Program-made: the position numbers and the translations under genes
Notes under the pieces: model-generated
The model's database searches: none
What the model saw: the letters and a program-made list of their open reading frames with translations, nothing else
What the model was told of the DNA's origin: nothing
Origin: Alphaproteobacteria bacterium
Lineage (GTDB): Bacteria; Pseudomonadota; Alphaproteobacteria; SHVV01
Length of the DNA: 64,000 nucleotides
Assembly (NCBI GenBank): GCA_965261735.1
Contig: OZ253470.1
Location: 2,368,001-2,432,000, forward strand
Direction of reading: 5' to 3'
Part shown: positions 23,797-57,343 of the stretch, piece by piece
Layout: each line of letters starts with the position of its first letter
How positions within the stretch are numbered: the stretch's first letter is position 1

Positions 23797-24902
23797 CTTG
23801 CCTATCCGGTTAACGCCCATGACCGCTACATGTAGGGTGCCGCCACTCTCCCGAGTAAAGCTCGGCATAGGTTGGAGCAGAGGTGTCGCCCGCGATGCCG
23901 AGCAATGAGCGGAAGGCGTTGAACGGGTAGAACCGCCTGTTGAAGCGGAAGGTGAACTCGTTGAGGTAGGCTTGTAGGTGCTGGTGGCTAACGCCGTGGT
24001 GAGATACCGATCAGCCACGTCTTCAGGTTGGCGAAAACCAGATGGATGATCGGCAGGTATTGCTCGGCAACCTCTGGATCACCACACTCGGCAACAGCGA
24101 AGTGCTCATAGCCGCGCTTACCGAGGCCAGCATAGCCGCTCCAATCGTCAGTAACGATCAGCGATCGCGGCGCGACGGTGCTCTCGACGAACCCACAGAG
24201 CGACTCGGCGCTACGGTCGAGCACGACGGCGAGCCGAACGCGTCCGGCATAGCGTCCGTCTTTCCGGTTGTCGAGCTTGGTGCCCGGCTTTCGATGACGC
24301 ACCTCGATGGCACAGGAGACGGGAACCTTGTGGTGAACACCACGGCCTTCCCCACGCGTTCGCCCGCCAACCCAGGTTTCGTCCACCTCAACATGGTTCT
24401 TGGGCTGTCCACCGATCCTGTCTTGGTTGGGCCGCACCATGCCCGAGCGGAGCTTGTGGAGAATTTGAAAGGCCGTCTCGTAGCGCGAAAGACCAAGTTG
24501 CCGCTGAAACTGCACGGCGGACATGCCGGGCGTCTGACTGGCGACCAGATAAGCGGCCCAGAACCAGACGTTCAGCGGAGTGTGGCTACGCTCCATCACT
24601 GTTCCCACCGTCAGCCCGGTGTTCTGGCGGCACTTGCGGCAGCGCAGGACGCCAGGGCGGTTTTCAAAGTGGAACGGCTCTCCCGCCGTGCCGCAGTGCG
24701 GGCAGGCAAAGCCGTCTCCCCAGCGGGCTTTCTCCAGGTAGGCGGCGCAGGCCGCATCATCGGGGAAAAGTCGCTGGAACTCGGGTAGCGAATGCGGGAA
24801 TGGGAGATCGGCGCGGTCGAGAACATCCATGGCGCGCTCCCCTATATCCGGTTTGCGCCCATTCTAGCCCTAGTGAGTGTGGGTGTCAACCGGATAGGCA
24901 AG
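23797..24902 (-). mobile_element. IS1595-family insertion sequence, copy 2 (1106 bp)
   Basis: IRs CTTGCCTATCCGGTT / AACCGGATAGGCAAG; TSD GGGTTATC at 23789-23796 and 24903-24910. Confidence 0.93.
23810..24830 (-). pseudogene. IS1595 transposase with a 1-bp insertion near 24002
   Basis: GGTGAGATACC versus GGTGGATACC in the other copies; the ORF stops before the YLNEF motif. Confidence 0.85.
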
Positions 24903-25879: not shown

Positions 25880-26815
25880 TCATGCCGCCAGAATCCCTTT
25901 GCATCGATCTCCTTGCCGTTGTTGTTGCGCCTGTGGGGATGTGGGCAAGGCGCGTAGCGGCTTGTCCATCATATCCACAGGCGGGGCGCCGCGGTAGGCC
26001 TCGGCCGGCGTTTCCCCCCCGAGCGCCGAGTGCGGCCTCTCGGTGTTGTAGAAGTCGATCCACTCGCCGATGACGCGCCGGGCCTCGAAGCCGTCGGCGA
26101 GCTCGCGCAGATAGACGGCCTCGTATTTGAGCGAGCGCCACAGCCGCTCAATGAAGATGTTGTCCAGGCACCGGCCCCTGCCGTCCATCGAGATCCGGAT
26201 GCCGGTCTCCCGCAAGCGCCCGGTGAAGGCGAAGCCGGTGAACTGGCTGCCCTGGTCGGTATTGAAGATCTCCGGCGTGCCATGGCGGGCCAGCGCCTCG
26301 TCGAGCGCGTCTGTGCAGAAGCCCGCATCCAGGGTGTTCGACAGACGCCAAGCCAGCACATGCCGGTTGGCCCAGTCCATGATCGCCACCAGGTAAAGAA
26401 AGCCGCGCCGCACCGGGATGTAGGTGATGTCGGCGCACCAGACATGGTTCGCCCGCTCGATCGTCAAGCCTCTGAGCAGATAGGGGTAGACCCGGTGCTC
26501 GGGATGCGGATCGCTGGTGCGCGGCGCCCGATAGATCGCCTGAAGCCCCATCAGGCGCATCAGACGACCGGCCCGGCGACGACCGACGCGCACGCCCTCG
26601 CGGCGTAGATGACGGACCATCTGACGGGCGCCGTAGAACGGATACTTCAGGAACAACTCATCAATGCGCCGCATCAGCGCCAGGGTCTCCGGGCTCTCGC
26701 CCTTGGGCGTGTAATAGAGCGAGGAGCGTCCGATCGACAGCAAACGGCATTGACGGCTCAAGCTCAGCGCCGGGTGAGCGCGTATCACCATCGTTCGCCT
26801 CTCGGCCCGGCTCAT
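25880..26815 (-). CDS. IS3-family transposase OrfB (rve/DDE)
   Basis: WCADITYI, FNTDQGSQF, DNIFIERLWRSLKYE, YN.ERPHS. Confidence 0.92.
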   Translation of the reverse strand: MSRAERRTMVIRAHPALSLSRQCRLLSIGRSSLYYTPKGESPETLALMRRIDELFLKYPFYGARQMVRHLRREGVRVGRRRAGRLMRLMGLQAIYRAPRTSDPHPEHRVYPYLLRGLTIERANHVWCADITYIPVRRGFLYLVAIMDWANRHVLAWRLSNTLDAGFCTDALDEALARHGTPEIFNTDQGSQFTGFAFTGRLRETGIRISMDGRGRCLDNIFIERLWRSLKYEAVYLRELADGFEARRVIGEWIDFYNTERPHSALGGETPAEAYRGAPPVDMMDKPLRALPTSPQAQQQRQGDRCKGILAA

Positions 26816-35303: not shown

Positions 35304-36473
35304 ATGTCGATCACTGCGCTGCGCACAAAGAGCAAGTTTCACCCCGATCCCGAGCAGTCCTACACGCTGCCCGGCACCTACTATTTCGACCCCGACATCT
35401 ACGAGCGCGAGCGCGAGGAGATCTTCTTCAAGACCTGGCAGTTCGCGGGCTATCTCGCCGACCTCGAGAACCCCGGCGACTTCATCACCATGGACCTCCT
35501 GGATCAGAGGATCGTGATCGTCCGAGATCGGAAGCGGCGTTTGCGCGCCTTCTACAACGTGTGCGCCCATCGCGGTCACACGCTCCTCGAGGGCAAGGGC
35601 AACAGGCGCATGATTACCTGCCCGTTCCATGCCTGGACGTACGATCTCGAGGGCAACCTCAAGGCGGCCGGCAACTCGGAGAACGTGGCCGGCTTCGATG
35701 CGGACGAATTCTGCCTCTCGGAGGTTCGCGTCGAGGAGTTCCTCCACATGGTGTTCGTCAATCTCGATACGGGCGCCGCAACGCTGGAGAGCCAGGCCGC
35801 GGGGTTGGCCAAGGAGATACGCGAAACGGTACCGAATTTCGATCAGCTCAAGTTCGCCCGCCGCGATACTTACGAGATCAAGGCCAACTGGAAGTTCATC
35901 TTCGATCAGCTCGAGTGCTATCACTGCCCGCATCTGCATCCCCAGGTCATGGGCCGCGATGATTCCTACATGGACACCAACTGGGAGTCCGTGGAGCATG
36001 GAATCTGGGCCACCCACATCGCGCGTGGCGGCCCCGACATTCTCGAAAAGATCGCGAAAAAGCTGCCCTACGACATCGGCGGCCAATCGATGGTGAAGGA
36101 TGTTTTCATCTGGTACCTGTGGCCCAACCTGTTCCTCGAGACACACCACGGCCCGAGCAACTTTAAGGTCGCGGTGGCGGGGCCGACGGGCGTCGAGGTC
36201 TCGATCCGGCATATGGACCACTTCTGCATCGACGATCCGCCCACGGCCTACAACATCGCGCAGATGGACAACCACATGCAGGTCGCCGTGCCGCAGGACC
36301 TCAAGGCCATGGAAATGCAGCAGCTCGGCGTTCACGCCCGCGGCTACACGCAGGGCCGCCTGATGGTCGACAAGGAGCGCTCGTGGCAGAGCGAGCACGG
36401 CGTCCATCATTTCGACAACCTGGTGTGGAACGCGCTCCACGGCGATAGCTACGACATCGATCCGGCGGCCTAA
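35304..36473 (+). CDS. Rieske non-heme iron oxygenase alpha subunit, CntA/YeaW-like, paralog 1
   Basis: CAHRG...CPFH Rieske ligands; ECYHC..LHP and PQD iron ligands; GYTQGRLMVD..SEH. Confidence 0.9.
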   Translation: MSITALRTKSKFHPDPEQSYTLPGTYYFDPDIYEREREEIFFKTWQFAGYLADLENPGDFITMDLLDQRIVIVRDRKRRLRAFYNVCAHRGHTLLEGKGNRRMITCPFHAWTYDLEGNLKAAGNSENVAGFDADEFCLSEVRVEEFLHMVFVNLDTGAATLESQAAGLAKEIRETVPNFDQLKFARRDTYEIKANWKFIFDQLECYHCPHLHPQVMGRDDSYMDTNWESVEHGIWATHIARGGPDILEKIAKKLPYDIGGQSMVKDVFIWYLWPNLFLETHHGPSNFKVAVAGPTGVEVSIRHMDHFCIDDPPTAYNIAQMDNHMQVAVPQDLKAMEMQQLGVHARGYTQGRLMVDKERSWQSEHGVHHFDNLVWNALHGDSYDIDPAA

Positions 36474-36537
36474 GCGCCCCGCATGCATCAGGCCTAAACG
36501 GCCCTCGCCAGGTCGAAGGGGCCAGAGGAGATAAGGC

Positions 36538-37683
36538 ATGGCCGGCGGTTCGGCGCTGAAGACCAAGAGCGGATTCCATCCCGACCCGGAGCACTCGTAC
36601 ACGCTGCCGGCGCACTACTACTACGACCGGGAGATCGAAACCCGGGAGCGCGAGGCTATCTGGTTCAAGACCTGGCAGCTGGTCGGCTACACCGCCGACC
36701 TCGGGTCCACGGGTAGCTTCATCACCGAAACCATCCTCGACCAGCCGGTGTTCGTGGTGCGCGGTAGGGACGGGGACTTGCGTGCCTACTACAACGTGTG
36801 CATGCACCGCGGGCATATCCTGCTCGAGGGCAAGGGCGACGTGCGCATGATTACCTGCCCGTTCCACGCCTGGACCTATGATCTCGAGGGCAACCTCAGG
36901 GCCGCAGGGAACTCGGAGAACGTCGCCGGGTTCGATGCGGGAGACTTCTGCCTGCCGGAGATCGGCGTCGAGGAGTTCGCGGGCATGGTGTTCGTCAACC
37001 TCGATGCGGAGGCGCCGTCGCTCGCCAGCCAGGCACCCGGGTTGGCCGAGGATTTTAGCGCTTCGGTGCCGCACTTCGATGCGCTCACCTTCGTGCGCCG
37101 CGATCCGTACACTATCGAGGCCAACTGGAAGTTCATCCCCGACCAGAACGAATGCTACCACTGCCCCAGCCTGCACCCGCAGGCGATGGGCACCAAGGAG
37201 ACCTACCTGCAGCCGAGCTGGGAGACCACCGACCACGGCATGTGGTCGAAACACGTTGTGCGCGGCAACCGCGCGGTCAAACCGGAGAATCTCCCCTACG
37301 GCTACAGTCCCGACGACGCGATCCAGGACGTCAACATCTGGTTCCTGTTTCCCAACCTGATCTTCCTCACCCACCAGGGCCCGAGCAACTTCAAGGTCAC
37401 GCGCATCATGCCGACGGGAGCCGAGACGGCGACCCAGACCATCGACAATTTCTGCCACAACGACCCGGCTACCGACATCGACATCGGCACGATGGACAAC
37501 TACCGCGACGTCGTGATTCCGCAGGACGTCCCGGCCATGGAGCAGCAACAGCTCGGCGTGCGTGCGCGCGGTTACACCCAAGGGCGCCTGATGTGCGACC
37601 GCGAGGTCTCGTGGCGCAGCGAGCACGGGACGCACTTCTTCGACAATCTGGTGTGGCGGGCGCTCAACGGCGATCGCTATTAG
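36538..37683 (+). CDS. Rieske oxygenase alpha subunit, paralog 2
   Basis: CMHRG...CPFH; ECYHCPSLHP; PQD. Confidence 0.9.
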   Translation: MAGGSALKTKSGFHPDPEHSYTLPAHYYYDREIETREREAIWFKTWQLVGYTADLGSTGSFITETILDQPVFVVRGRDGDLRAYYNVCMHRGHILLEGKGDVRMITCPFHAWTYDLEGNLRAAGNSENVAGFDAGDFCLPEIGVEEFAGMVFVNLDAEAPSLASQAPGLAEDFSASVPHFDALTFVRRDPYTIEANWKFIPDQNECYHCPSLHPQAMGTKETYLQPSWETTDHGMWSKHVVRGNRAVKPENLPYGYSPDDAIQDVNIWFLFPNLIFLTHQGPSNFKVTRIMPTGAETATQTIDNFCHNDPATDIDIGTMDNYRDVVIPQDVPAMEQQQLGVRARGYTQGRLMCDREVSWRSEHGTHFFDNLVWRALNGDRY

Positions 37684-37717
37684 TCGAGCGCGCCGGCTCG
37701 CTACTGGAGGGGAACAG

Positions 37718-38521
37718 ATGGCAGGGAAGGCAGCCAAGAGGACGGCACGCGCAAAGCGCAAGGTCGCGATCGTCACCGGCGGCGGCACCGGGCTCGGGCG
37801 CTCCTGCGCCAACGTGTTGACGCGCGAAGGTTATGCGGTCGCGATCGTCGGGCGCCGGGCAGCAAAGCTCAAGCCGAAGCGCGGCGAAACGTTGTACCCC
37901 TACGTGTGCGACGTTGCCGACCGGGCCCAGATCCGAGCCACCGTCAAGGCCGTGCTCGCCGATTTCGGGCGCCTCGACGCGCTCGTGAACGGGGCCGGCT
38001 CGGTGCGCATCAAGAAGGCGGAGAACGTTACCCAGGACGACATCGACAGCCTGATCGGCACCAACCTCGTCGGCACGATGAACTTCTGCTACGCCTGTGT
38101 GCCGGCATTGCGCAAGGCGCGCGGCACCATCGTCAACATGAGCTCCAGCATCGCCTATCGCCCGTCGGCCGAAAGCAGCATCTACGCCGCCACCAAGGGC
38201 GGCGTCGAATCTTTCACCAAGGCCCTCGCGGTCGAGCTCGCGCCGCGCGTGCGCGTCAATACGGTCAGCCCGGGGCTCGTGCGCAGCGAGGTCTATCTCG
38301 CCGCCGGCATGGACGCCAAGACTTACAAGAACCTGCTGAAGTGGGCCGGCAGCCTCTATCTTATGGGACGCGCGGGCGAGCCAGAGGACGTCGCCGAGCT
38401 CGTCGCTTTTCTCGCTTCCGACAAGGCGTCCTGGATCACCGGCCTGTGTATCCCGGTCGACGGCGGCTACAGCGTCGGCCAGACCATCGAGGTGCCGCGG
38501 ACCGAGCTCCACGGCTCGTAG
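37718..38521 (+). CDS. SDR family oxidoreductase
   Basis: TGGGTGLG, NGAG, YAATK, VSPG. Confidence 0.9.
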   Translation: MAGKAAKRTARAKRKVAIVTGGGTGLGRSCANVLTREGYAVAIVGRRAAKLKPKRGETLYPYVCDVADRAQIRATVKAVLADFGRLDALVNGAGSVRIKKAENVTQDDIDSLIGTNLVGTMNFCYACVPALRKARGTIVNMSSSIAYRPSAESSIYAATKGGVESFTKALAVELAPRVRVNTVSPGLVRSEVYLAAGMDAKTYKNLLKWAGSLYLMGRAGEPEDVAELVAFLASDKASWITGLCIPVDGGYSVGQTIEVPRTELHGS

Positions 38522-38608
38522 GGCGGGCCGCAACCCGGCCCGGTTCCTCCGCGTCCGTCACCGGCGCTGTCATGGCGACGTCGGCAGGCGGCAACCAAGG
38601 AGCGTCCG

Positions 38609-39448
38609 ATCAGTAGCTACGAGGCGTACGACAAAACTGCATGCAACTATGACGCGACGCGCGGGCCAATTGGCATCGAGATCATCCTCGGCTGTCTCGC
38701 TCGCGGGATTTCGCCGCTGAACGAGCTCACCGTCCTCGACGCCGGCTGCGGCACGGGCAACTACGCCGCGCAGTTGGCGCCCAACGTCCATCGCCTCACG
38801 GGCGTCGATTTCAGCGCGGGCATGTTGGCGGTCGCCGCGGGCAAATTGGCGCCCCACATCAGCGCCGGCCGTTGCGCGCTGCATCGCGCCGACATTCTCG
38901 GGCTTCCCTTCGCGGACGGCGCCTTCCACGCCGTCACCGTCAATCAGGTGCTTCACCACCTGCCCGACGATCCCGCGGCCGGCTACCCCGTACTCAGGCG
39001 TGCGCTGCGCGAGTTCGCCCGCGTGCTCAAACCCGGCGGGAGCCTGGTCGTCAACACCTGCGACCAGCATCAGCTCAGGGAGGGGTACTGGTTCCTCGCG
39101 TTGGTGCCGGCGGCGATGGAGGCGCTCGCGGTCCGGCTCGCCCCCCTCGAGACCCTGGTTGAAATCGCCGGCGAGACCGGTTTCGGCGCCCGCGGGCGAT
39201 TCGTACCGGTCGACGCCGTTGTCCAGGGAGAGCGCTACTTCGATCCGCGCGGGCCGCTGAGCGAGGAATGGCGCGACGGCGACTCGACCTGGGCGCTGGT
39301 GCCCGAGACCGAGCTAGCGCAAGTTTGCGCGCGCCTGAGTTCATTGGATGCGGGTGGCGAGCTCGAGGCCTTTGTGCGGCGGCTCGACGCGCGGCGCCCG
39401 CAAATCGGCCAGATCACGATCCTGCATTTGGTCAAGAAGGCGACTTGA
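38609..39448 (+). CDS. Class I SAM-dependent methyltransferase with an apparent ATC start
   Basis: The frame carries VLDAGCGTG upstream of the first TTG at 38774; AAGGAG-N6-ATC at 38597-38611 opens (I)SSYEAYDKTA. Confidence 0.7.
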   Translation: MSSYEAYDKTACNYDATRGPIGIEIILGCLARGISPLNELTVLDAGCGTGNYAAQLAPNVHRLTGVDFSAGMLAVAAGKLAPHISAGRCALHRADILGLPFADGAFHAVTVNQVLHHLPDDPAAGYPVLRRALREFARVLKPGGSLVVNTCDQHQLREGYWFLALVPAAMEALAVRLAPLETLVEIAGETGFGARGRFVPVDAVVQGERYFDPRGPLSEEWRDGDSTWALVPETELAQVCARLSSLDAGGELEAFVRRLDARRPQIGQITILHLVKKAT

Positions 39449-39473
39449 GCGGGCCGGCGAGGAGGCAAGCGAC

Positions 39474-40406
39474 ATGCAGAAGCGCACGTTGGGCAAGACC
39501 GGGCTGGAGGTGTCGGCCCTCGGGTTCGGGGGTGCTCCGGTCGGTTACCTGGAGACGGATCGGCGTCAAGCCACCGAGATCCTCAATACCCTCCTCGATC
39601 GCGGCGTCAACCTGATCGACACCGCCGCGAGCTACGCGGGCTCCGAAGAGGTGATCGGCCAGGCCATCGGGCAGCGGCGCGACGAGTACGTCCTGGTCTC
39701 GAAATGTGGTCAGGCCTTCGATGACATCGAGGGCGAGGCGTGGTCGGCAGCGGCCATCGGACAGACCGTGGACCGCGCCCTTCGCCGTCTGAAGACCGAT
39801 CATCTCGACGTCATGCTGCTGCACTCGTGTGGCATCGAGACGCTGAAGACGGGTGAGGCGATCGGGGCGCTCGCGCACGCGCTCGAGGCGGGCAAGGTCC
39901 GCTACGCCGGCTATTCCGGCGATAACGAGGCCGCGGCCTACGCCGCCCAACTCGACGTCGTCTCGGTGATCGAGACCTCCGTCAGCATCTGCGACCAGGC
40001 CAACATCGATGCCGTCCTGCCGGAGACCCGGCGCAACGACATCGGCGTCTTGGCGAAGCGGCCGATTGCCAACGCGGCCTGGAAGGACCCTTCCGAGCAG
40101 CCGGGCATCTATGCCGGCTACGCACGAACCTACACCGAGCGATTGGCGAAGATGGGCATCACGCCGGAAGAGCTCGGCTTCGAGGGCGCGGGCTCCGAGG
40201 CGTGGCCCGAGCTCGCCCTGAGGTTCACGCTTTCGCACCCCGGGGTGTCGACGGCGATCGTGGGTACGACGAAGCTCGCGAGCGTCGAGGACAACATCGC
40301 CGCGGCCGCGAAGGGGCCACTATCGGTCGACGTCGTCACCGCGCTGCGGCAGGCATTTCAGCGTGCCGAGGCGGCAGCCGGCGAGAAGTGGACCGGCCAG
40401 ACCTAG
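39474..40406 (+). CDS. Aldo/keto reductase
   Basis: RTLGKTGLEVSALGFG, IDTAASY, SKCG, LRRLKTDHLD..LLH. Confidence 0.9.
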   Translation: MQKRTLGKTGLEVSALGFGGAPVGYLETDRRQATEILNTLLDRGVNLIDTAASYAGSEEVIGQAIGQRRDEYVLVSKCGQAFDDIEGEAWSAAAIGQTVDRALRRLKTDHLDVMLLHSCGIETLKTGEAIGALAHALEAGKVRYAGYSGDNEAAAYAAQLDVVSVIETSVSICDQANIDAVLPETRRNDIGVLAKRPIANAAWKDPSEQPGIYAGYARTYTERLAKMGITPEELGFEGAGSEAWPELALRFTLSHPGVSTAIVGTTKLASVEDNIAAAAKGPLSVDVVTALRQAFQRAEAAAGEKWTGQT

Positions 40407-40541
40407 TCCCCAATTCGGATCGGGCCGCGCGCCGTGAGTCGGCGCCCCTCGGTTGACCGGGGTTGCGGTTTGGTTCAGCATGGGGTTGTGCGGTCGTAGT
40501 GTGCCTGCCACACCTCTTTACACGATTCCGGGAGTAAGATC

Positions 40542-41684
40542 ATGGTGTCCAACCTCGCCGCCGAGCCCAAGTTCCACCCCGACCCAGAGCGCTCCTACAC
40601 GCTGCCGGGCACCTACTACTTCGACCCCGAGATCTTTGAGCGCGAGAAGGAGGAGATCTGGTTCAAGACTTGGCAGTTCATCGGCTATCGCCACGATCTT
40701 AAGGAGCCCGGCGACTACATCACGGCGACCATCATCGATCAGCCGGTGTTCGCGGTCCGGGCCAAGGACGGGCGCCTGCGGGCCTACTACAACGTGTGCA
40801 TGCACCGTGGTCACATCCTGCTCGAGGGCACGGGCAATACGCGCATGATCACCTGCCCGTTCCATGCCTGGACCTATGATTTCGAGGGCAACCTCAAGGC
40901 GGCGGGCAACTCCGAGAACGTGGCCGGCTTCGATCACGGCGACTTCTGCCTGCCCGAGATCCAGGTCGAGGAATTCGCCCACATGGTGTTCGTGAACCTC
41001 GATGCGGGGGCGCCTTCATTGGCGAGCCAGGCGGGCGATCTCGCCCAGCACTGGCAGGACAACGTGCTCAATTTCGACAAGCTCAAGCTCGCGCGCCGCG
41101 ACCCTTACGTTATCGAGGCCAACTGGAAGTTCGTCGCCGACCAGAACGAGTGCTACCACTGCCCGGTCATCCATCCCGGCGTCGCCAGCGTCGAGGGTGG
41201 GCCCGGCGCCTGGATCACCACCGAGCACGACATCTGGTCGACGCACCTGGTGCGCGCCAACGAGCAGGTCACCGCCGAGCGCGTGCAGAACCTGATCGAA
41301 CCCATCCCGCCCGACGAGCTCCAGGACGACACCCACCTCTACTTCCTGTTCCCCAACCTGATCTTCGTCACCCACTGGGGCCCGAGCAACTTCAAGGTCA
41401 TGCACTTCATGCCGAGGGGCATCGAGTCGACGCTCGAGATCGTCGACAATTTCTGCCTCAACGATCCGCCGAGCGAGGGCGACATGGCCAACATCAACCG
41501 CTTCAGCGATATCGTGCAGCCGCAGGACATCCACCCCATGGGACAACAGCAGCTCGGCGTGCACTCGCGCGGCTATACGCAAGGCCGCCTCATGGTCGAT
41601 CGCGAGCGCACCTACCGCAGCGAGCACTCCGTCCACCACTTCGACAACCTCGTGTGGACCGCGCTCAACGGCCCGAACTACTAG
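40542..41684 (+). CDS. Rieske oxygenase alpha subunit, paralog 3
   Basis: CMHRG...CPFH; ECYHCPVIHP; PQD. Confidence 0.9.
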   Translation: MVSNLAAEPKFHPDPERSYTLPGTYYFDPEIFEREKEEIWFKTWQFIGYRHDLKEPGDYITATIIDQPVFAVRAKDGRLRAYYNVCMHRGHILLEGTGNTRMITCPFHAWTYDFEGNLKAAGNSENVAGFDHGDFCLPEIQVEEFAHMVFVNLDAGAPSLASQAGDLAQHWQDNVLNFDKLKLARRDPYVIEANWKFVADQNECYHCPVIHPGVASVEGGPGAWITTEHDIWSTHLVRANEQVTAERVQNLIEPIPPDELQDDTHLYFLFPNLIFVTHWGPSNFKVMHFMPRGIESTLEIVDNFCLNDPPSEGDMANINRFSDIVQPQDIHPMGQQQLGVHSRGYTQGRLMVDRERTYRSEHSVHHFDNLVWTALNGPNY

Positions 41685-41703
41685 GCCGCCAGGGGGGAGC
41701 TCC

Positions 41704-42879
41704 ATGTCATCGAGCGCCGCGCCGCGCACCACCAACCGGTTCCACGCCGACCCCGAGCTGTCCTACACCCTGCCCGGCCGCTACTACTTCGACGCCGGGA
41801 TCTACGCGAGCGAGAAGGAGGAGATCTTCTTTAAGTCCTGGCAGTTCGCGGGCTACGTCCACGAGCTGCGCGAGCCCGGCGACTACGTCACCGCGCGCAT
41901 CGTCGACCAGCCGGTGTTCGTCGTGCGCGCCAAGGACGGAGCTTTGCGCGCCTATTACAACGCCTGCATGCACCGCGGCCACATCCTGCTCGAGGGCAGC
42001 GGCAACGTGCGCATGATCACCTGCCCGTTCCACGCCTGGACCTATGATCTCGAGGGCAACCTCAAGGCGGCGGGAAACTCGGAGAACGTCGCAGGCTTCG
42101 ACCACGGCGATTTCTGCCTGCCGGAGATCGGGGTCGAGGAGTTCGCCAACATGGTGTTCGTCAACCTCGATGCGGGCGCGCCCTCGCTCGCCAGCCAGGC
42201 CGGCGACCTGGCCGAGGACTTCCGGACCAACGTCGTCAATTTCGACCGCCTCCGCTTCGGCCGGCGCGACCCCTACAAGCTTAAGTGCAATTGGAAGTTC
42301 GTGATGGACCAGAACGAGTGCTACCACTGCCCGATCATCCATCCGCGGGTCTCCAGCGTCCAGGACGGTCCCGACAACTGGACGACCACCGAGTACGCGT
42401 TGTGGTCCAAGCATCTCATCCGCGCCAACCCGACCATCCGCGCTGAGCGCGAGCAGGCGCTGCGCGAGCCCATTCCGGCGGACGATCTCCAGCTCGACAT
42501 GTACATCTGGTTCCTGTGGCCGAATCTGGTGTTCGTCACGCAGTGGGGTCCGGCCAACTTCCGTGTCATGCACTGCATGCCCGAGGGGCCCGAGCTCACC
42601 ATCGAGAACGTCGATACCTTCGTCCTCAACGACCCGCCGAGCGGCGACGACATCGACGCCATGAACCGCTTCCGCGACGTAGTCCAGCCGCAGGACACCC
42701 TGGCCATGGAGCAGCAGCAGCTCGGCGTGCACGCACGCGGCTACTGGCAGGGCCGCCTCATGGTCGACAAGGGTCGCACCTGGCGCAGCGAGCATGCGGT
42801 CCACCACTTCGACGACATGGTGTGGAGGGCGCTGAACGGCCCCGACTACGGCCCCGATACCGCCACCGCCGCGCGCTGA
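41704..42879 (+). CDS. Rieske oxygenase alpha subunit, paralog 4
   Basis: CMHRG...CPFH; ECYHCPIIHP; PQD. Confidence 0.9.
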   Translation: MSSSAAPRTTNRFHADPELSYTLPGRYYFDAGIYASEKEEIFFKSWQFAGYVHELREPGDYVTARIVDQPVFVVRAKDGALRAYYNACMHRGHILLEGSGNVRMITCPFHAWTYDLEGNLKAAGNSENVAGFDHGDFCLPEIGVEEFANMVFVNLDAGAPSLASQAGDLAEDFRTNVVNFDRLRFGRRDPYKLKCNWKFVMDQNECYHCPIIHPRVSSVQDGPDNWTTTEYALWSKHLIRANPTIRAEREQALREPIPADDLQLDMYIWFLWPNLVFVTQWGPANFRVMHCMPEGPELTIENVDTFVLNDPPSGDDIDAMNRFRDVVQPQDTLAMEQQQLGVHARGYWQGRLMVDKGRTWRSEHAVHHFDDMVWRALNGPDYGPDTATAAR

Positions 42880-44044
42880 TGACGAGCGTCGCGCCGACGG
42901 CTCGGGAGAGCCGGTTCGGTCACGATCCCGAGCACTCCGCGACGCTGCCCGGGCATTACTACATGGACCGGACGATCTTCGAGCGCGAGAACGAGGAGAT
43001 CTGGTTCAAGACCTGGCAGTTCGTCGGCTACCTCCACGATCTCGAAGGGCCCGGCGACTACATCACGACTACTCTCCTCGACCAGCCGCTGTTCGTGGTC
43101 CGCGCCAAGGACGGCAACCTGCGCGCCTTCTACAATGTGTGCATGCACCGCGGGCATATCCTGCTCGAGGGCACGGGCCATACGCGGATGATCACCTGCC
43201 CCTTCCATGCCTGGACCTACGATCTCGAAGGCAACCTCATGGCGGCGGGAAACTCGGAGAACGTGGCCGGCTTCGATGCGGGCGAGTTTTGCCTGCCCGA
43301 GATCCAGGTCGAAGAGTTCCTGCACATAGCGTTCGTCAATCTCGATGTGGGCGCACCCTCGCTCGCGAGCCAGGCCGGCGGGCTCGAGCGCGAGATTCGC
43401 GCCACCGTGCCGCAGTTCGAGCAGCTCAAGCTCGCCCGCCACGACCCCTTCGTGCTCAAGTGCAACTGGAAGTTCATCCTCGACGGCATGGAGTGCTACC
43501 ACTGTCCCCACATCCACCCTGGCGTTTTCGACGGCAAGAAGCCCGAGCTTCGCGAGTCGATCGAGCACGACGTGTGGGCGACGCACATTTCCTACGGCGA
43601 CGGCGAGGTCACCCGACATCAGCGGGACAAGCTGCCCTACGAGTTCGACGCCGACGATGCGCTCCAGAACGTCTACATCTGGTGGCTGTGGCCCAACCTG
43701 ATCTTCGTCCCCCCCAGGGGCCGAGCAACCTCAAGGTCATGCACATTCGCGCCGACAGCGTCGAGCGCTCGTTCATGGGGATCGACAACTTCTTCGTGAA
43801 CGACCCGCCGAGCGCGGCCGAGATCGGTAGCATGAACTGGTTCCGCGATGTGATTCAGCCGCAGGATACGCGCGCCATGGAGCTCCAGCAGCTCGACATG
43901 AGCGCGCGCGGCTACAGCCAGGGCCGCCTCATGGTCGATCGCGGGCGCACCTGGCGCAGCGAGCACACCACTCACCTGTTCGACCTGCGGGTGTGGCTCG
44001 CGCTCAACGCCGAGGGCACCCAGGTCGGCGGAGGCGAGGCATGA
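42879..44044 (+). pseudogene. Rieske oxygenase alpha subunit, paralog 5, frameshifted in a C7 run
   Basis: The frame runs to WPNLIFV, then QGPSNLK... continues in another frame; one base short at 43709-43715. Confidence 0.85.
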
Positions 44045-44349
44045 CGGCAAACATCGTGCGAGACAAGCGGCGTAGGTTCCACCCCGACCCGGAGCATTCG
44101 GACACGCTGCCCGGGACCTACTACTGGGACCCCGACATCTTCGCCCGCGAGAAGGAGGAGATTTTCTTCAAGACGTGGCAGTTCGTGGGCTATGTGAGCG
44201 AGCTCAGGAGCCCGGGCGATTTCGTCACCGCGACTATCATCGACCAGCCCGTCTTCGTGATCCGCGCCAAGGAAGGGGCTTTGCGCGCCTACTACAACGT
44301 GTGCATGCACCGCGGTCATATCCTGCTCGAGGGCAAGGGCAACGTGCGC
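44041..44349 (+). pseudogene. Rieske oxygenase alpha subunit, paralog 6, truncated
   Basis: Homology ends at CMHRGHILLEGKGNVR, just before the second Rieske half-motif CPFH. Confidence 0.85.
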
Positions 44350-50006: not shown

Positions 50007-52346
50007 CTATTCGGCGGCGCGCCGGGGGGTGGCGGGCGCGCCCGAGTCGGCGGCGGCCCGCGAGGCGCTCTCGGCATCGGCCGAGCGCGCGGCGAGGCGC
50101 AGCGCCTGGTCGCGCGCAGGGATATAGGGGTTGGGCCAGACCTGGTCGGCATAGCCGTAGTGGGCGGCGGCGCGCAGCGTGAAATGGGGATCGGTGAGAT
50201 GGGGCCGGCCGAGCGCGCATAAGTCGGCGCGGCCCGCGGCGATGATGGTGTTGATTTGGTCGGGGCTCGTGATGTTACCGACCGCGATGGTCGGAATGCC
50301 GGCCTCGTTGCGAATCTGGTCGGCGAAGGGTGTCTGGAACATGCGCCCGTAGAGCGGCTGCGCCTCGATCGTGGTCTGGCCCGCGGAGACGTGCACGATG
50401 TCGCAGCCGTGGGCCGCGAGCGCAGTTGCGATGCGCACTGAATCGTCGCCCCCGAGCCCGCCTTCGGCCCAGTCGGTGGCTGAGATGCGCACCGAGATCG
50501 GCTTGTGCGCGGGCCACGCCTCGCGCACCGCCTCGAGCACCTCGAGCGGATAGCGCAGCCGGTTGGCGGGGGTGCCGCCATAGCGGTCGCCACGCCCGTT
50601 GGTCAGCGGCGAGAGAAAGCTCGACAGCAGATAACCGTGCGCGCAGTGCAGCTCGAGGGCGTCGAACCCCGCGGCCTCGGCCATCTCGGCCGCGGCGACG
50701 AAGGCCTCGCGCACCTCGCGCATCTTGGCCCGGTCCATCTCGATCGGCACTTGGTGGCGCGGCGTGTAGGGCACCGGCGAGGCCGAGTAGACGGGCCAGT
50801 TGCCGTGCGCCAGCGGCTCGTCAGCGCCCTCCCAGCCCAGGCCGGTCGAGCCCTTGCGCCCGCAGTGGCCGAGCTGCAGCGCGATTCGCGCCCGGCTGTG
50901 GGCGTGCACGAAGTCGACGATACGCTTCCACGCCGCGACGTGTTCAGGTGCGTAAATGCCGGTGCACCCGAGCGTGATACGCCCCTCGGCGGAGACGCAG
51001 GTCATCTCGGTGATGACCAGGCCGGCACCGCCCCGCGCCAGCGCGCCGAGATGCACCAGGTGCCATTCGCCGGGCACGCCGTCGACCGCGCAGTATTGGT
51101 CCATGGGCGAGACCACGACACGGTTGTCCACCACCATATCGCGCAGGCGGAAAGGGGTGAACATCGGCGGGCGCGCCGGCTCGAGCGGGACATCGAATCC
51201 CTGGCTCGCGCGCACGTGGCCGGCCCACCATCTGTCGACCCCGTCGATATAGGGAGCGTCGCGCAGTTTTAGGTTCTCGTAGGTTACCTGTTTGCTGCGT
51301 GAGAGCAGGCTGAACGCGAGCTGCATCGGCTCCATGCGCCAGTAGCGCTCGACATTCTCGAACCACACGAGGCTGAAATCGGCGGCGCGCTGGGTGATCT
51401 CGACCTCGAGGCGGCGCACCGCCTCGAAGCGGTCGAGGGCGCCGTCGACGTCGTCCGGGCAGGACTGGAACGCGTCGAATAGGGCGATCGCGTCCTCCAT
51501 GGCGAGCTTGGTGCCCGAGCCGATGGAGTAGTGCGCCGTATGCAGGGCGTCGCCGATCAGCGCGATATTACCGTGGTGCCAGCGCTCGTTGCGAATGGTC
51601 GGAAAAGTGCGCCACACGGAGCGGTTCGCGAGCAGCGGATGGCCGTCGAGCTCGTCGGCGAAGACATCCTGGCAGAAGGCGAGCGTATCGGCCTCGCTCG
51701 CCTTGTCGAGCTTCGCCCGGCGCCACGTCTCTTCCGTGGCCTCGACGACGATCGTAGCCAGCCCCCGGTCGTAGCTGTAGGCGGCGAGCTGGAAGATGCC
51801 GTGCGGGGTTTCGCGAAAGCTGAACAGGAAGGACGAGAAGTACTTGGTGGTGCCGAGCCACACGAACTTGTTCTTGCGCCAGTCGAAGGTGGGCCGGAAG
51901 TGTTCCTGGTAGCGTTCGCGGACGGCGCTATTGATGCCGTCGGCGGCGAGCACCAGATCAGCATCGCGAAATTGCTCGACGTCGCTGACCTCGCTCTCGA
52001 ATCGCATCGTCACACCGAGATCGGCGCAGCGCTCCTGCAAGATTTTCAACAGCTCGACCCGGTAGATCCCGGCAAAGCCGTGGCCGCCCGAGCGAACGAC
52101 GGCACCCTTGGCATGAACCTCGATGGCATCCCAGTAGGCGAAGCCGCTGGTGATCCGCTCGTAGGTCTCGGCGTCGTAGGCGCGGAAGCGGCCGAGGGTT
52201 TCGTCTGAGAACACCACGCCGAAGCCGAAGGTATCGTCGGCCCGGTTGCGCTCGTAGATCGTGATGTCGTGCTCCGGGTCGGCCTTCTTCATAAGGATGC
52301 TGAAATAGAGGCCGGCCGGGCCCGCACCGACGACGACGATTCTCAT
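50007..52346 (-). CDS. Bifunctional anthraniloyl-CoA/salicylyl-CoA monooxygenase-reductase (FAD monooxygenase plus old-yellow-enzyme domain)
   Basis: GAGPAGLY, DTFGFGVVFSD, TAHYSIGSGTKLAMED; NRVVVSPM, ELHCAHGYLLSSFLSP, RPHL.DP. Confidence 0.9.
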   Translation of the reverse strand: MRIVVVGAGPAGLYFSILMKKADPEHDITIYERNRADDTFGFGVVFSDETLGRFRAYDAETYERITSGFAYWDAIEVHAKGAVVRSGGHGFAGIYRVELLKILQERCADLGVTMRFESEVSDVEQFRDADLVLAADGINSAVRERYQEHFRPTFDWRKNKFVWLGTTKYFSSFLFSFRETPHGIFQLAAYSYDRGLATIVVEATEETWRRAKLDKASEADTLAFCQDVFADELDGHPLLANRSVWRTFPTIRNERWHHGNIALIGDALHTAHYSIGSGTKLAMEDAIALFDAFQSCPDDVDGALDRFEAVRRLEVEITQRAADFSLVWFENVERYWRMEPMQLAFSLLSRSKQVTYENLKLRDAPYIDGVDRWWAGHVRASQGFDVPLEPARPPMFTPFRLRDMVVDNRVVVSPMDQYCAVDGVPGEWHLVHLGALARGGAGLVITEMTCVSAEGRITLGCTGIYAPEHVAAWKRIVDFVHAHSRARIALQLGHCGRKGSTGLGWEGADEPLAHGNWPVYSASPVPYTPRHQVPIEMDRAKMREVREAFVAAAEMAEAAGFDALELHCAHGYLLSSFLSPLTNGRGDRYGGTPANRLRYPLEVLEAVREAWPAHKPISVRISATDWAEGGLGGDDSVRIATALAAHGCDIVHVSAGQTTIEAQPLYGRMFQTPFADQIRNEAGIPTIAVGNITSPDQINTIIAAGRADLCALGRPHLTDPHFTLRAAAHYGYADQVWPNPYIPARDQALRLAARSADAESASRAAADSGAPATPRRAAE

Positions 52347-52395
52347 GGCCTTGCTCCCCGCGAGGCGACGATGGCCGGTCGCACGACGAGGCCGC

Positions 52396-52452
52396 GCACC
52401 GGCGGCGCACGCACCGGCGGCGCAGGCACCGGCGGTGCAAGCACCGCCGACG
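52396..52452. repeat. 15-bp tandem repeat, about 3.8 units
   Basis: GCACCGGCGGCGCAC GCACCGGCGGCGCAG GCACCGGCGGTGCAA GCACCGCCGACG. Confidence 0.8.
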
Positions 52453-52455
52453 ATA

Positions 52456-52473
52456 TAGTTTAAGTATAAAGTA
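52456..52473. promoter_or_regulatory. AT-rich imperfect palindrome, candidate operator
   Basis: TAGTTTAAGTATAAAGTA (TTTA-N4-TAAA core) in a divergent intergenic region. Confidence 0.35.
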
Positions 52474-52555
52474 GTTCGAGGGAAAGCCGATTCGAGAAAC
52501 ATCGAGGGGCGGCGCCTCGCTTGCGTGGCGCGGCGCCCCTTGTAGAGTGCGGGCG

Positions 52556-53749: not shown

Positions 53750-54676
53750 TCGAGCCCATCGGCCGACGGGGGCGACGACGCATCCGGCGGGTAGCATCCC
53801 GCCGCTCACGAAGCCTTAACGACACTGTGCCACATTGCCCGGGCCGCACCCCAAGGAGGCGTGGATTCCGGTTCCTCGGGATCCGGGGAGCTCCACCACA
53901 AGGTCGCCAGGAGGCCAGCACGATGGCGATGGAGAAGAACGCCACTAGCGCCCGCCGCGCGCCGCGAGAGGTTGCGGAGGAAGGCGCGGTTTTGGCACAG
54001 GCCGTTGTCGACAACCTCGTCGATGGCGTGATCGTCATCGACTCGCGCGGCACCGTCGAGACCTTCAATCCCGCGGCCACTCGGATGTTCGGCTACGCCG
54101 CCGCCGAGGTCGTCGGTCACAACGTCAAAAAGTTGATGCCCGAGCCCACCCGCGAGGAGCACGACGGCAACATCGGCAATTACCTGAAGACCGGCAAGGC
54201 GAAGATCATCGGCATCGGGCGCGAAGTAACGGCGCTGCACAAGGACGGCATCCATTTCCCGATCGACCTGACGATCACCGAGATGACCATCGCCGACCAG
54301 CCGAAGTTCGTCGGCATCACGCGCGACCTCACGGAACACAAGCAGGCGGCCGCGTTGATCGCGGAACAAAGCCGCGCTCTCCTCGAATTGTCGACCCCGG
54401 TCATCAGCGTATGGGATGAGATCGTGCTGCTGCCGATCATCGGCGTCATCGACAGCGGGCGTGCCCAGCAGATCATCGAGAATCTCCTCGGCAGCATCGT
54501 CCGCACCGAATCCCGCGTCGCCATCATCGACGTCACCGGCGTGCCCGTTATCGATACCATGGTGGCACACCACCTGTTGAAGACGGTCGCCGCGGCAAAG
54601 ATGCTCGGAACTCAAGTTGTTCTCGCCGGAATCAGCCCGGAGATCGCACAAACTCTCGTTAAGCTAAGGATCGACC

Positions 54677-55781
54677 CTTGCATATCCGGTTAACACCCAT
54701 GACCGCTACATGTAGGGTGCCGCCACTCTCCCGAGTAAAGCTCGGCATAGGTTGGAGCAGAGGTGTCGCCCGCGATGCCGAGCAATGAGCGGAAGGCGTT
54801 GAACGGGTAGAACCGCCTGTTGAAGCGGAAGGTGAACTCGTTGAGGTAGGCTTGTAGGTGCTGGTGGCTAACGCCGTGGTGGATACCGATCAGCCACGTC
54901 TTCAGGTTGGCGAAAACCAGATGGATGATCGGCAGGTATTGCTCGGCAACCTCTGGATCACCACACTCGGCAACAGCGAAGTGCTCATAGCCGCGCTTAC
55001 CGAGGCCAGCATAGCCGCTCCAATCGTCAGTAACGATCAGCGATCGCGGTGCGACGGTGCTCTCGACGAACCCACAGAGCGACTCGGCGCTACGGTCGAG
55101 CACGACGGCGAGCCGAACGCGTCCGGCATAGCGTCCGTCTTTCCGGTTGTCGAGCTTGGTGCCCGGCTTTCGATGACGCACCTCGATGGCACAGGAGACG
55201 GGAACCTTGTGGTGAACACCACGGCCTTCCCCACGCGTTCGCCCGCCAACCCAGGTTTCGTCCACCTCAACATGGTTCTTGGGCTGTCCACCGATCCTGT
55301 CTTGGTTGGGCCGCACCATGCCCGAGCGGAGCTTGTGGAGAATTTGAAAGGCCGTCTCGTAGCGCGAAAGACCAAGTTGCCGCTGAAACTGCACGGCGGA
55401 CATGCCGGGCGTCTGACTGGCGACCAGATAAGCGGCCCAGAACCAGACGTTCAGCGGAGTGTGGCTACGCTCCATCACTGTTCCCACCGTCAGCCCGGTG
55501 TTCTGGCGGCACTTGCGGCAGCGCAGGACGCCAGGGCGGTTTTCAAAGTGGAACGGCTCTCCCGCCGTGCCGCAGTGCGGGCAGGCAAAGCCGTCTCCCC
55601 AGCGGGCTTTCTCCAGGTAGGCGGCGCAGGCCGCATCATCGGGGAAAAGTCGCTGGAACTCGGGTAGCGAATGCGGGAATGGGAGATCGGCGCGGTCGAG
55701 AACATCCATGGCGCGCTCCCCTATATCCGGGTTGCGCCCATTCTAGCCCTAGTGGGTGTGGGTGTAAACCGGATAGGCAAG
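54677..55781 (-). mobile_element. IS1595-family insertion sequence, copy 3 (1105 bp)
   Basis: IRs CTTGCATATCCGGTT / AACCGGATAGGCAAG; TSD GATCGACC at 54669-54676 and 55782-55789. Confidence 0.93.
54690..55709 (-). CDS. IS1595-family transposase
   Basis: Identical to the copy 1 protein except the last residue. Confidence 0.92.
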   Translation of the reverse strand: MDVLDRADLPFPHSLPEFQRLFPDDAACAAYLEKARWGDGFACPHCGTAGEPFHFENRPGVLRCRKCRQNTGLTVGTVMERSHTPLNVWFWAAYLVASQTPGMSAVQFQRQLGLSRYETAFQILHKLRSGMVRPNQDRIGGQPKNHVEVDETWVGGRTRGEGRGVHHKVPVSCAIEVRHRKPGTKLDNRKDGRYAGRVRLAVVLDRSAESLCGFVESTVAPRSLIVTDDWSGYAGLGKRGYEHFAVAECGDPEVAEQYLPIIHLVFANLKTWLIGIHHGVSHQHLQAYLNEFTFRFNRRFYPFNAFRSLLGIAGDTSAPTYAELYSGEWRHPTCSGHGC

Positions 55782-55880
55782 GATCGACCTATCAGCCGTG
55801 CACTGTGCGGGATCGCTCCGCGCCGCCATGGCCGAGGCTTTGCGTGCCGTGGGTCACAAACTCAGCACCGAGGCCGCGCC

Positions 55881-56234
55881 GTGAAGGTTCCGATACTGAA
55901 GCTCGGTGACATCCTGCTGACCTCGATTCAGGTCGAACTTACCGACCAGGAGGCGCTCGAGTTTCAGGCCTACGTCACGCAAACCATCAGCAGGACCGGC
56001 GCCCGCGGCTTGGTGATCGATATCACGGCCCTCGACGTGGTCGACTCCTACCTCGCGCGCGTCCTCAACGATACCGCCAACATGGCCCAGCTTCTCGGGG
56101 CCAAGGCCGTACTCTGCGGCATGCAGCCGCTCGTTGCGCTGGCCCTCGTCGAAATGGGACGTGAGCTGATCGGCGTCGATACCGCGCTTCACCTCGACCA
56201 GGCCATGACCACGCTGCGGCAACAGCTCGGTTGA
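55881..56234 (+). CDS. rsbS: RsbS-like STAS antagonist
   Basis: VPILKLGDILLTSIQ, IDITALDVVDSY (phospho-Ser site), GMQP.VA..LVEMG. Confidence 0.88.
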   Translation: MKVPILKLGDILLTSIQVELTDQEALEFQAYVTQTISRTGARGLVIDITALDVVDSYLARVLNDTANMAQLLGAKAVLCGMQPLVALALVEMGRELIGVDTALHLDQAMTTLRQQLG

Positions 56235-56257
56235 GCGCGCCCGTGCAGACACTCGCC

Positions 56258-56693
56258 ATGGGCAAGACGACGACTCTCCCCATAATCAAGGACGCGGACG
56301 TGATCCTCGCGCGCGCCGCCGGACGCGAGATCGCCCGCGATCTCGGCTTTAGCGCCGCAGATCAGACGCGGCTCGCGACAGCCATCTCCGAGCTCACGCG
56401 CAACGTTCTGTGCCACGCCGGCACGGGCGAGTGCAGCATCACCGATGACTCCGATTTCCACCTCGCCGTGGTCGGTGTGGTGGTCGACGATACCGGGCCA
56501 GGCATCCCCGACGTCGACCTTGCGATGCAGGACGGCTTCTCCACCGGCGGCAGCCTCGGGTGGCGGGCTACCCGGAACAAGGAGGCTCGTGCACGACTTC
56601 TCGATCGAGAGCAGTCCTGACGGTACGAGGGTCGCGATCGCCATGGTCCGGCGCAAGACCGAAGCACCACCGCCGGCAGTTGCGTACGCTTAG
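56258..56693 (+). pseudogene. rsbT: RsbT-like serine/threonine kinase, frameshifted near 56558
   Basis: ATAISELTRN, DTGPGI, DGFSTGGSLG then GLPGTRRLVHDF in a shifted frame; one extra base in a G-rich tract. Confidence 0.82.
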
Positions 56694-56722
56694 CGCAGGC
56701 GGCCCACCCATGCGAGCTAGCC

Positions 56723-57343
56723 ATGTCTGACCGAGCGAGGCGGGCAGAGTACGGTGCCCTCGACGGCCAGATCGGGCGTGCCATGCGCAGTCGGCGCGGC
56801 GACCCCCATTGCGGCGACGCCTGCACCGGATGGCGGGGGCATGGCCGGGTGACGTTGTGTATGGTCGACGGCCTTGGGCACGGGCAGGAAGCGGAGGCCG
56901 CCGCGCTCGCCGCCCTTGCGTACGTCGGCGATCGCCAGGCGCACGCACTGGCCGAGGTTTTTTCGGGATGCGACGAGGCGCTGCGCGAGACCCGCGGCGC
57001 TGCCATGGGCATCGCCATCATCGAGGAGGCGACCGGCCGACTCTCCTACGCCGGCGTTGGCAACACGCGCGCCCTAGTCGCCGGGGCCCGAACGATCAGA
57101 CTCCCGGAAAGCCGCGGCATCGTTGGCGGCGGCTTCGGCGCGCTCTGTACCGAGAGCACAATGCTCCGCCCCGGCGCATTGGTCGTGATGGCGACCGATG
57201 GCATTGCCGCCAACCTCGACATCGTCGACTACGACCCCACCCTGTGGGCCCGCCCGCAGGGTCTAGCCGATCTGATCCTGCGCGATTGGCGTCACAACGA
57301 CGACGACGCCGCCGTCTTCGTGTTCCGCTTCGCGGGGATGTGA
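56723..57343 (+). CDS. rsbX: RsbX-like PP2C/SpoIIE phosphatase
   Basis: CGD, VDGLGHG, TRGAAM, AGVGN, ATDG, DDAA. Confidence 0.85.
   Translation: MSDRARRAEYGALDGQIGRAMRSRRGDPHCGDACTGWRGHGRVTLCMVDGLGHGQEAEAAALAALAYVGDRQAHALAEVFSGCDEALRETRGAAMGIAIIEEATGRLSYAGVGNTRALVAGARTIRLPESRGIVGGGFGALCTESTMLRPGALVVMATDGIAANLDIVDYDPTLWARPQGLADLILRDWRHNDDDAAVFVFRFAGM

Follow-up and report, generated by a model that had tools for sequence, protein, structure and literature searches.

What does an array of Rieske oxygenases related to CntA do in a genome that encodes no reductase beside it? We examined a 64,000-nucleotide stretch of alphaproteobacterial DNA (hereafter the window; positions 2368001-2432000 of contig C1 in the source genome, G000, a single contig of 5.03 Mb that is 98% complete), which carries at window positions 35304-44349, on the + strand, six Rieske alpha-subunit genes or remnants (R1 to R6) in blocks of two and four around genes for a short-chain dehydrogenase/reductase (SDR), a methyltransferase and an aldo/keto reductase. 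We conclude, with a probability of about 0.6, that this array belongs to an old expansion, spanning the bacterial family, of CntA-related oxygenases that have lost Tyr203 (CntA numbering), likely an alpha-only monooxygenase library with different pockets and one shared reductase, acting probably on varied ring-containing or N-substituted substrates and not on carnitine.

The array is one piece of a family-wide expansion

The array does not stand alone: it is one piece of an expansion that has given members of this bacterial family about 20 related enzymes per genome. G000 carries 19 CntA-like genes that are intact and six that are broken or fragmentary, along with 30 Rieske alpha subunits that lie farther from CntA. 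At an E-value of 1e-60 there are 23 CntA-like matches in G000 and 25, 23, 18, 17, 8, 7 and 1 (G002) in relatives of the same family, where the counts of 25 and 23 take in assembly duplicates; the counts range from 17 to 25 in near-complete relatives from two other genera, and one further genus has a single copy. Outside the family the same threshold returned one match in one of 23 genomes. Across 401 genomes of the class, with at most four candidates scored per genome, a single match was found in 4 of the 397 genomes outside the family, and one of these four is of the deletion type. The single deletion-type copy of G342, a genome of another family (L144:1489-2655), also lacks the Cys pair of group V enzymes (DGLEFYHG) and was possibly transferred. 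Database records with relatives at 51-62% identity are mostly titled as Alphaproteobacteria metagenome-assembled genomes, several of whose titles read to us as lake or sea samples.

Because the deletion-type clade (support 0.992 in FastTree) holds many orthologue groups that span genera, the expansion is older than the genera. R1 has orthologues in four genomes (G004, G005, G006, G007). Of the array genes in genera g2 and g4, the first group with R3 and R4 (SH-aLRT 94.7) and the last with the R6 orthologue (SH-aLRT 100). An R2-like gene directly followed by the same type of SDR recurs in four of seven relatives (again G004 to G007) and once more in G000, at C1:4061225. On sequence evidence, the array belongs to a group V subfamily that is expanded but uncharacterised, is likely served by a single reductase and shows concerted evolution at the level of domains; literature searches found no description of a Tyr203-deletion subfamily. 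A second expanded alpha clade occupies 13 loci on C1 of G000 (e.g. 1055708, 1138468, 2347969, 2870176 and 4578223); its members, of about 380-400 aa, carry motifs such as ENAMDxYH and ENFVDVYH and lie farther from CntA, and they are possible further clients of the single reductase.

The array enzymes keep group V signatures and lose the carnitine pocket

By sequence, tree and structure comparison (the trees left out Stc2, GbcA and choline monooxygenase sequences), the family of R1-R5 is closer to CntA/YeaW than to ring-hydroxylating dioxygenases, and every one of its nearest characterised relatives belongs to group V. The proteins have the two-domain Rieske oxygenase alpha fold, and CntA is both the closest solved structure and the closest fold to a model of R2 (pLDDT 94.7). 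Metal ligands are kept in almost all family copies. The bridging Glu205 and the Cys206/Cys209 pair, group V features according to parts of PMC7948474 and PMC10952381, are also retained, as ECYHC in R1-R5. The CntA/YeaW likeness drawn in a preliminary description of the window is borne out to this extent, but it does not reach the substrate pocket.

A one-residue deletion removes Tyr203 in 96 of 105 family copies, including R1-R5, and also in the R6 orthologue P0007. The same deletion is present in 117 of the 120 top database hits, but in only 8 of the 150 best clusters at 50% identity; two G000 copies (C1:1453285 and C1:4105659) keep the position, as N-Y. Tyr203, the cation-binding residue of CntA, is essential to substrate recognition there, as set out in a section of PMC7948474. 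Beyond this residue, the predominant residue of the 96 deletion copies at CntA F258, N270, Y295 and F319 is neither aromatic nor a conserved polar equivalent. In our alignment, which is least certain around 225-258, CntA Y225, F258, N270, Y295, Y315 and F319 correspond to W, V, E, M, H and A in R1; W, V, L, I, Y and V in R2; W, T, V, V, F and V in R3; and W, M, V, V, F and V in R4, so that the group Va pocket of CntA, with an aromatic residue at 203 and these six positions, is not matched by R1-R4. Scores against the GbcA hidden Markov model are 131-149, compared with a curated cut-off of 670.

A single PDR/CntB-type candidate reductase lies far from the array

The preliminary description had noted the absence of a beta subunit, ferredoxin or reductase from the window and had supposed a reductase encoded elsewhere; the first point holds, and the second is likely. 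Whole-genome searches with PF00175, PF14759, PF00866, PF00111 and YeaX gave no match inside the window, in agreement with a Pfam scan of 37 of its 55 called genes (10 more genes were scanned separately). None of the eight beta subunits of G000 falls in the window, and by analogy with CntA this clade should need none. The genome holds one full-length YeaX match (C1:4727674), a reductase of the phthalate dioxygenase reductase (PDR)/CntB type at C1:4727659-4728633, 2.3 Mb from the array. Its best structure match is PDR itself, and it is 36-38% identical to CntB/YeaX. Exactly one such reductase is present in seven of eight genomes of the order, the only genome without it being 63% complete.

The neighbourhood of the reductase is conserved and catabolic, with no Rieske alpha subunit among the genes seen. 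At C1:4700001-4736000 the gene ends a long catabolic cluster common to G002 (L154/L141; L155), which contains SDRs of the array's subfamily (four in G002), aldo/keto reductases, hydrolases, amidohydrolases and an ABC importer; a RidA gene accompanies it in most relatives.

How such a reductase recognises its oxygenases is an active topic (bioRxiv 2026.04.03.713453), and no two-component complex had been solved as of PMC9508527, by the account in part of that paper. A docking patch proposed there for YeaW includes K104. In our alignment this position is K in 54 of 76 g2/g4 copies and is replaced in g1, the genus of G000, with R at the following position in 17 of 18 copies; it is among the Rieske-domain positions with lineage-specific changes. 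R83 is conserved in 91 of 94 copies.

Rieske and catalytic domains have discordant histories

Among 16 G000 paralogs, mean identity is 72% in the Rieske domain, 37% in the pocket region and 71% in the C-terminal tail. We built separate domain trees for 94 deletion-type proteins and counted changes of genus label: the Rieske tree requires 15 and the catalytic tree 35, compared with a mean of about 40 and a minimum of 32-33 for shuffled labels. Rieske domains group by genus, and catalytic domains group by orthologue. Ten bootstraps of each gave 11-19 and 34-36 changes, respectively, the Rieske tree gave 16 changes after removal of the eight most genus-linked columns, and each domain alignment rejects the tree of the other (2000 replicates, with each tree optimised on the data of its own domain). 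Of the 18 g1 proteins (G000 plus P0007), 13 have a closest cross-genus catalytic match whose Rieske domain is less similar than the median in-genome paralog. The R6 orthologue illustrates the pattern: its Rieske domain is 83% identical to that of R4 and 63% to its own orthologues, whereas its pocket is 40% identical to R4 and 66-69% to its own orthologues. In G000, exact runs of at least 40 bases occur in 14 of 120 gene pairs (permuted mean 5.0; 1 of 300 permutations reached this number, p ~0.003), and 13 of these 14 lie in the Rieske domain.

An explanation that dispenses with reductase docking is that the paralogs act as mixed trimers, such that the homogenised Rieske domain and tail mark subunit interfaces. 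The caffeine demethylases NdmA and NdmB, which form mixed oligomers, are a precedent, and both the conservation of the tail, which equals that of the Rieske domain, and the spacing of R3-R6, which lie 19 bases apart or overlap, fit such an assembly. On the other hand, most copies are solitary and scattered, CntA is a homotrimer (parts of PMC7948474/PMC10952381), and no copy looks like a structural partner because each has the full set of catalytic ligands; we regard mixed trimers as very improbable, the least probable of the explanations that we considered.

Gene neighbours favour ring compounds over betaines

We collected the genes within two positions of 111 paralogs (284 neighbours in 159 clusters, annotated through representatives). 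Those that recur are VOC/dioxygenase-like proteins (9), alpha/beta hydrolases (9), luciferase-like proteins (7), SDRs (7), amidohydrolases (6), isochorismatases (6) and NMT1 binding proteins (4), together with other Rieske alpha and beta genes; the VOC-family neighbours are of extradiol-dioxygenase size. Genome-wide, G000 carries 19 VOC, 17 hydrolase and 20 amidohydrolase_2 copies. The annotated neighbours include no betaine transporter, GlxA regulator or reductase. As judged from gene content, these surroundings favour catabolism of ring compounds rather than of betaines.

G000 does carry a separate, non-Rieske route resembling that for carnitine. At C1:2444000-2462300 and 1797000-1803600 (L156-L158) we observed an operon for sarcosine oxidase and two clusters whose genes resemble those for gamma-butyrobetaine dioxygenase, carnitine dehydrogenase, CaiD and DmdA. 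A gene like that for the 3-keto acid cleavage enzyme is also present; the genes of this route score below curated cut-offs, except soxB and the cleavage enzyme.

Weighing the evidence

The preliminary description favoured a library covering betaines or other methylated osmolytes or alkaloids. In its fuller form, this alternative has the enzymes act on quaternary amines and such compounds (betaines, stachydrine, N-methylpyridinium compounds) by C-N cleavage or N-demethylation, with one shared reductase and with another aromatic residue in place of Tyr203. Methylated amines stay in contention because group Vb enzymes, which lack Tyr203, still oxidise betaines (as described in part of PMC7948474). 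The closest characterised relatives and the retained Glu and Cys pair place the array in group V; most deletion copies retain W/F at 225 (89 of 96) and F/Y at 315 (73 of 96), residues with the potential to bind a cation; N-Y persists in two G000 copies; and G000 has sarcosine oxidase and genes like those for gamma-butyrobetaine dioxygenase, carnitine dehydrogenase and the 3-keto acid cleavage enzyme. Against an amine library, however, those betaine genes are present in one or two copies, are distant from the paralogs and require no Rieske enzyme. A BCCT transporter is found in none of the eight genomes, strong OpuAC hits number 0-2 per genome and are absent from genus g4, which has 7-18 paralogs, one query found no GlxA-type regulator, and G000 has no MttB, no GmaS over the cut-off and no trimethylamine monooxygenase of the flavin-containing type. 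We consider an amine library a serious but unlikely alternative.

Besides the cation-binding potential and the group Vb precedent, several results weigh against the reading that we prefer, that of an old expansion of Tyr203-less oxygenases sharing one reductase and probably acting on substrates other than carnitine. Support for the deletion clade is moderate in IQ-TREE once indel columns are removed (88.6). The pairing of array and reductase is inferred, since three other candidate donors exist in G000: a Fer2-FAD-NAD protein (C1:2511804), a ferredoxin reductase with a Rieske ferredoxin (C1:4045568) and a MOSC-FNR fusion. The real clients of the PDR-type reductase could be the 30 other Rieske alpha subunits of G000, and G002 retains the reductase with only one CntA-like copy. 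At the position of YeaW K117, 91 of 94 copies have D, and six of six reductases have E at that of YeaX R271, so the docking face differs from that of CntA/CntB. Other genomes have long identical tracts in only 0-2 pairs, and synonymous divergence is similar in the two domains (0.45 and 0.50); gene conversion is therefore supported in G000 only, and convergent selection may contribute. Finally, the genomes behind the neighbour counts are related, which makes these counts non-independent, and the favoured substrate class is read from sequence and gene context.

Four array genes are intact and two are broken

The positions, strand and two-plus-four layout given in the preliminary description are as we find them, but only four of its six co-oriented alpha genes are intact. 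These are R1 (35304-36473, 389 aa, motif DQ-LECYHC), R2 (36538-37683, 381 aa, DQ-NECYHC), R3 (40542-41684, 380 aa) and R4 (41704-42879, 391 aa), all on the + strand, as are R5, R6 and the three genes between R2 and R3. They share 57-72% mutual identity and have all metal ligands (CntA C86, H88, C106 and H109; triad H208, H213 and D323). R3 and R4, which are 72% identical, are by their sequences local tandem duplicates.

R5 (42879-44044) is frameshifted at a run of seven C at 43709-43715, which leaves an in-frame product of 306 aa without the Asp iron ligand (D323). The frameshift is present in all seven assemblies that cover the site, and contigs of four sequencing runs span the C-run gap-free. 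One member of the R5 cluster, P0129, has one extra Pro at 43709-43715, which suggests that the run varies in length between strains; phase variation through it is possible, although none was seen in the contigs covering it. R6 (44041-44349) is a 5' remnant: about 103 codons match a full-length orthologue and are followed by unrelated sequence, and it ends before C106, that is, before the second Rieske ligand pair. Because none of the 11 members of the R5 90% cluster is full length, whereas 8 of 10 in the R6 cluster are, at 384 aa (P0007), and R6 is intact in sister strains, R5 is likely a species-wide pseudogene and R6 likely a strain-level loss.

The array is not an assembly artefact, a possibility raised in the preliminary description. 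Contigs from six studies (runs X1, X3, X4, X5, X9 and X12) bridge all junctions: R1-R2, R2 through the SDR, methyltransferase and aldo/keto reductase to R3, R3-R4, R4-R5 and R5-R6. The R6 break is reproduced in contigs of X1 and X3, which cover no more than about 30 bases to its left.

These broken genes raise the question of whether the expansion consists of redundant or decaying duplicates in a genome rich in insertion sequences (IS), which share one substrate for gene dosage or are being lost and form no specificity library. Broken or fragmentary genes account for six of the roughly 25 G000 copies, at least two of them disrupted by IS elements, which are frequent near paralogs, and the R5 lesion recurs in every assembly covering the site. 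Yet orthologue groups persist across three genera with pockets 55-69% identical to orthologues, compared with 32-43% to most in-genome paralogs, the metal ligands are widely retained, and R1-R3 sequence occurs in one RNA library (a weak indication, with no silent-stretch control). Decay or dosage is accordingly improbable as an account of the whole set.

Among the interposed genes, the classical SDR (37718-38521) belongs to a subfamily with 3-9 copies per genome and has GRR after its second strand, which we take to indicate use of NADP(H). The S-adenosylmethionine (SAM)-dependent methyltransferase (38609-39448) has an atypical or lost start, since its frame opens with ATC behind an AAGGAG site; no in-frame ATG was found upstream of the SAM-binding motif. 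Neither this gene nor the aldo/keto reductase (39474-40406) is a recurrent paralog neighbour in relatives. Elsewhere in the window, IS1595-family copies and an IS3-type transposase lie at 9203-10219, 23991-24830, 25883-26743 and 54693-55709, a STAS/kinase/SpoIIE/GGDEF partner-switching cluster at 53923-58584 is interrupted by an IS element, and a salicylyl-CoA 5-hydroxylase/oxidoreductase at 50007-52502 scores above its curated cut-off, consistent with aromatic catabolism.

A working model and its significance

By analogy with CntA, each protein would form a head-to-tail trimer. NADH would reduce the reductase, first at flavin mononucleotide and then at the [2Fe-2S] centre, and electrons would then reach the Rieske cluster and, by way of the bridging Glu, the iron of the neighbouring subunit, which activates O2. 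Selection for compatibility with one reductase, together with gene conversion, would keep Rieske domains alike within a lineage, and catalytic domains would keep their own specificities across genera. The weakest steps are the chemistry, which may be hydroxylation or N/O-dealkylation of substituted (hetero)aromatics, and the fate of the products, which may pass to co-expanded ring-cleavage enzymes and hydrolases, with that of R2 going to the adjacent SDR.

A bolder "hub-and-cartridge" form of this model, which we put forward tentatively and with less than even confidence, is that one core reductase drives about 20 group V deletion-type oxygenases whose electron-entry domains are homogenised in each lineage by gene conversion and co-evolution, while their catalytic domains are preserved from genus to genus, each for a new substrate of its own, such as an N-heterocycle or another cyclic compound of dissolved organic matter. 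If so, group V chemistry would reach beyond quaternary amines.

About 95 natural variants of one oxygenase scaffold, in matched orthologue groups and with a single candidate reductase, make testable both the determinants of group V substrate choice and two-component reductase-oxygenase recognition. There is also a consequence for environmental surveys, in which cntAB calls are read as carnitine-to-trimethylamine activity (in part of PMC9999580): because database names for array-type proteins include "choline monooxygenase" and "carnitine monooxygenase subunit", trimethylamine-production estimates from cntA counts may be inflated by copies without the carnitine-binding residue.

Comparison with known systems

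The array enzymes are 33-36% identical to those of CntA/CntB from Acinetobacter baumannii (PDB 6y8j, 6y9c) and YeaW/YeaX from E. coli. In both of these systems the reductase is in the same operon, whereas here it is 2.3 Mb away; CntA/YeaW occurs as one copy, whereas G000 has 19 intact copies with a remodelled pocket and no BCCT transporter. The group Vb enzymes Stc2 and GbcA have Asn at 203, a position deleted in the array enzymes, and similarity to them is confined to the N-terminal half. Pairs of the TsaM/TsaC type, in which a classical SDR directly follows the Rieske gene, resemble R2 and its SDR. According to portions of PMC10579966, Rieske-SDR pairing is common, including in the Stc2/CntA network cluster, and an NAD-selecting Asp is present in 95.5% of the SDRs of such pairs. 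At that place the array SDR has GRR, suggesting NADP(H).

The closest precedent for alpha subunits sharing electron carriers is Phenylobacterium immobile E, whose pyrazon oxygenase system comprises 19 scattered alpha subunits, some in tandem, with two reductases, two ferredoxins and no operon (as reported in part of PMC7907043). Like G000, with 19 CntA-like and 30 other alpha subunits to four candidate donors, it combines many alpha subunits with few carriers and no shared operon. The P. immobile system uses a beta subunit and ferredoxins for ring dihydroxylation, whereas the array clade is CntA-like, alpha-only and likely two-component, and of the two only the array clade combines expansion across three genera with discordant evolution of its domains.

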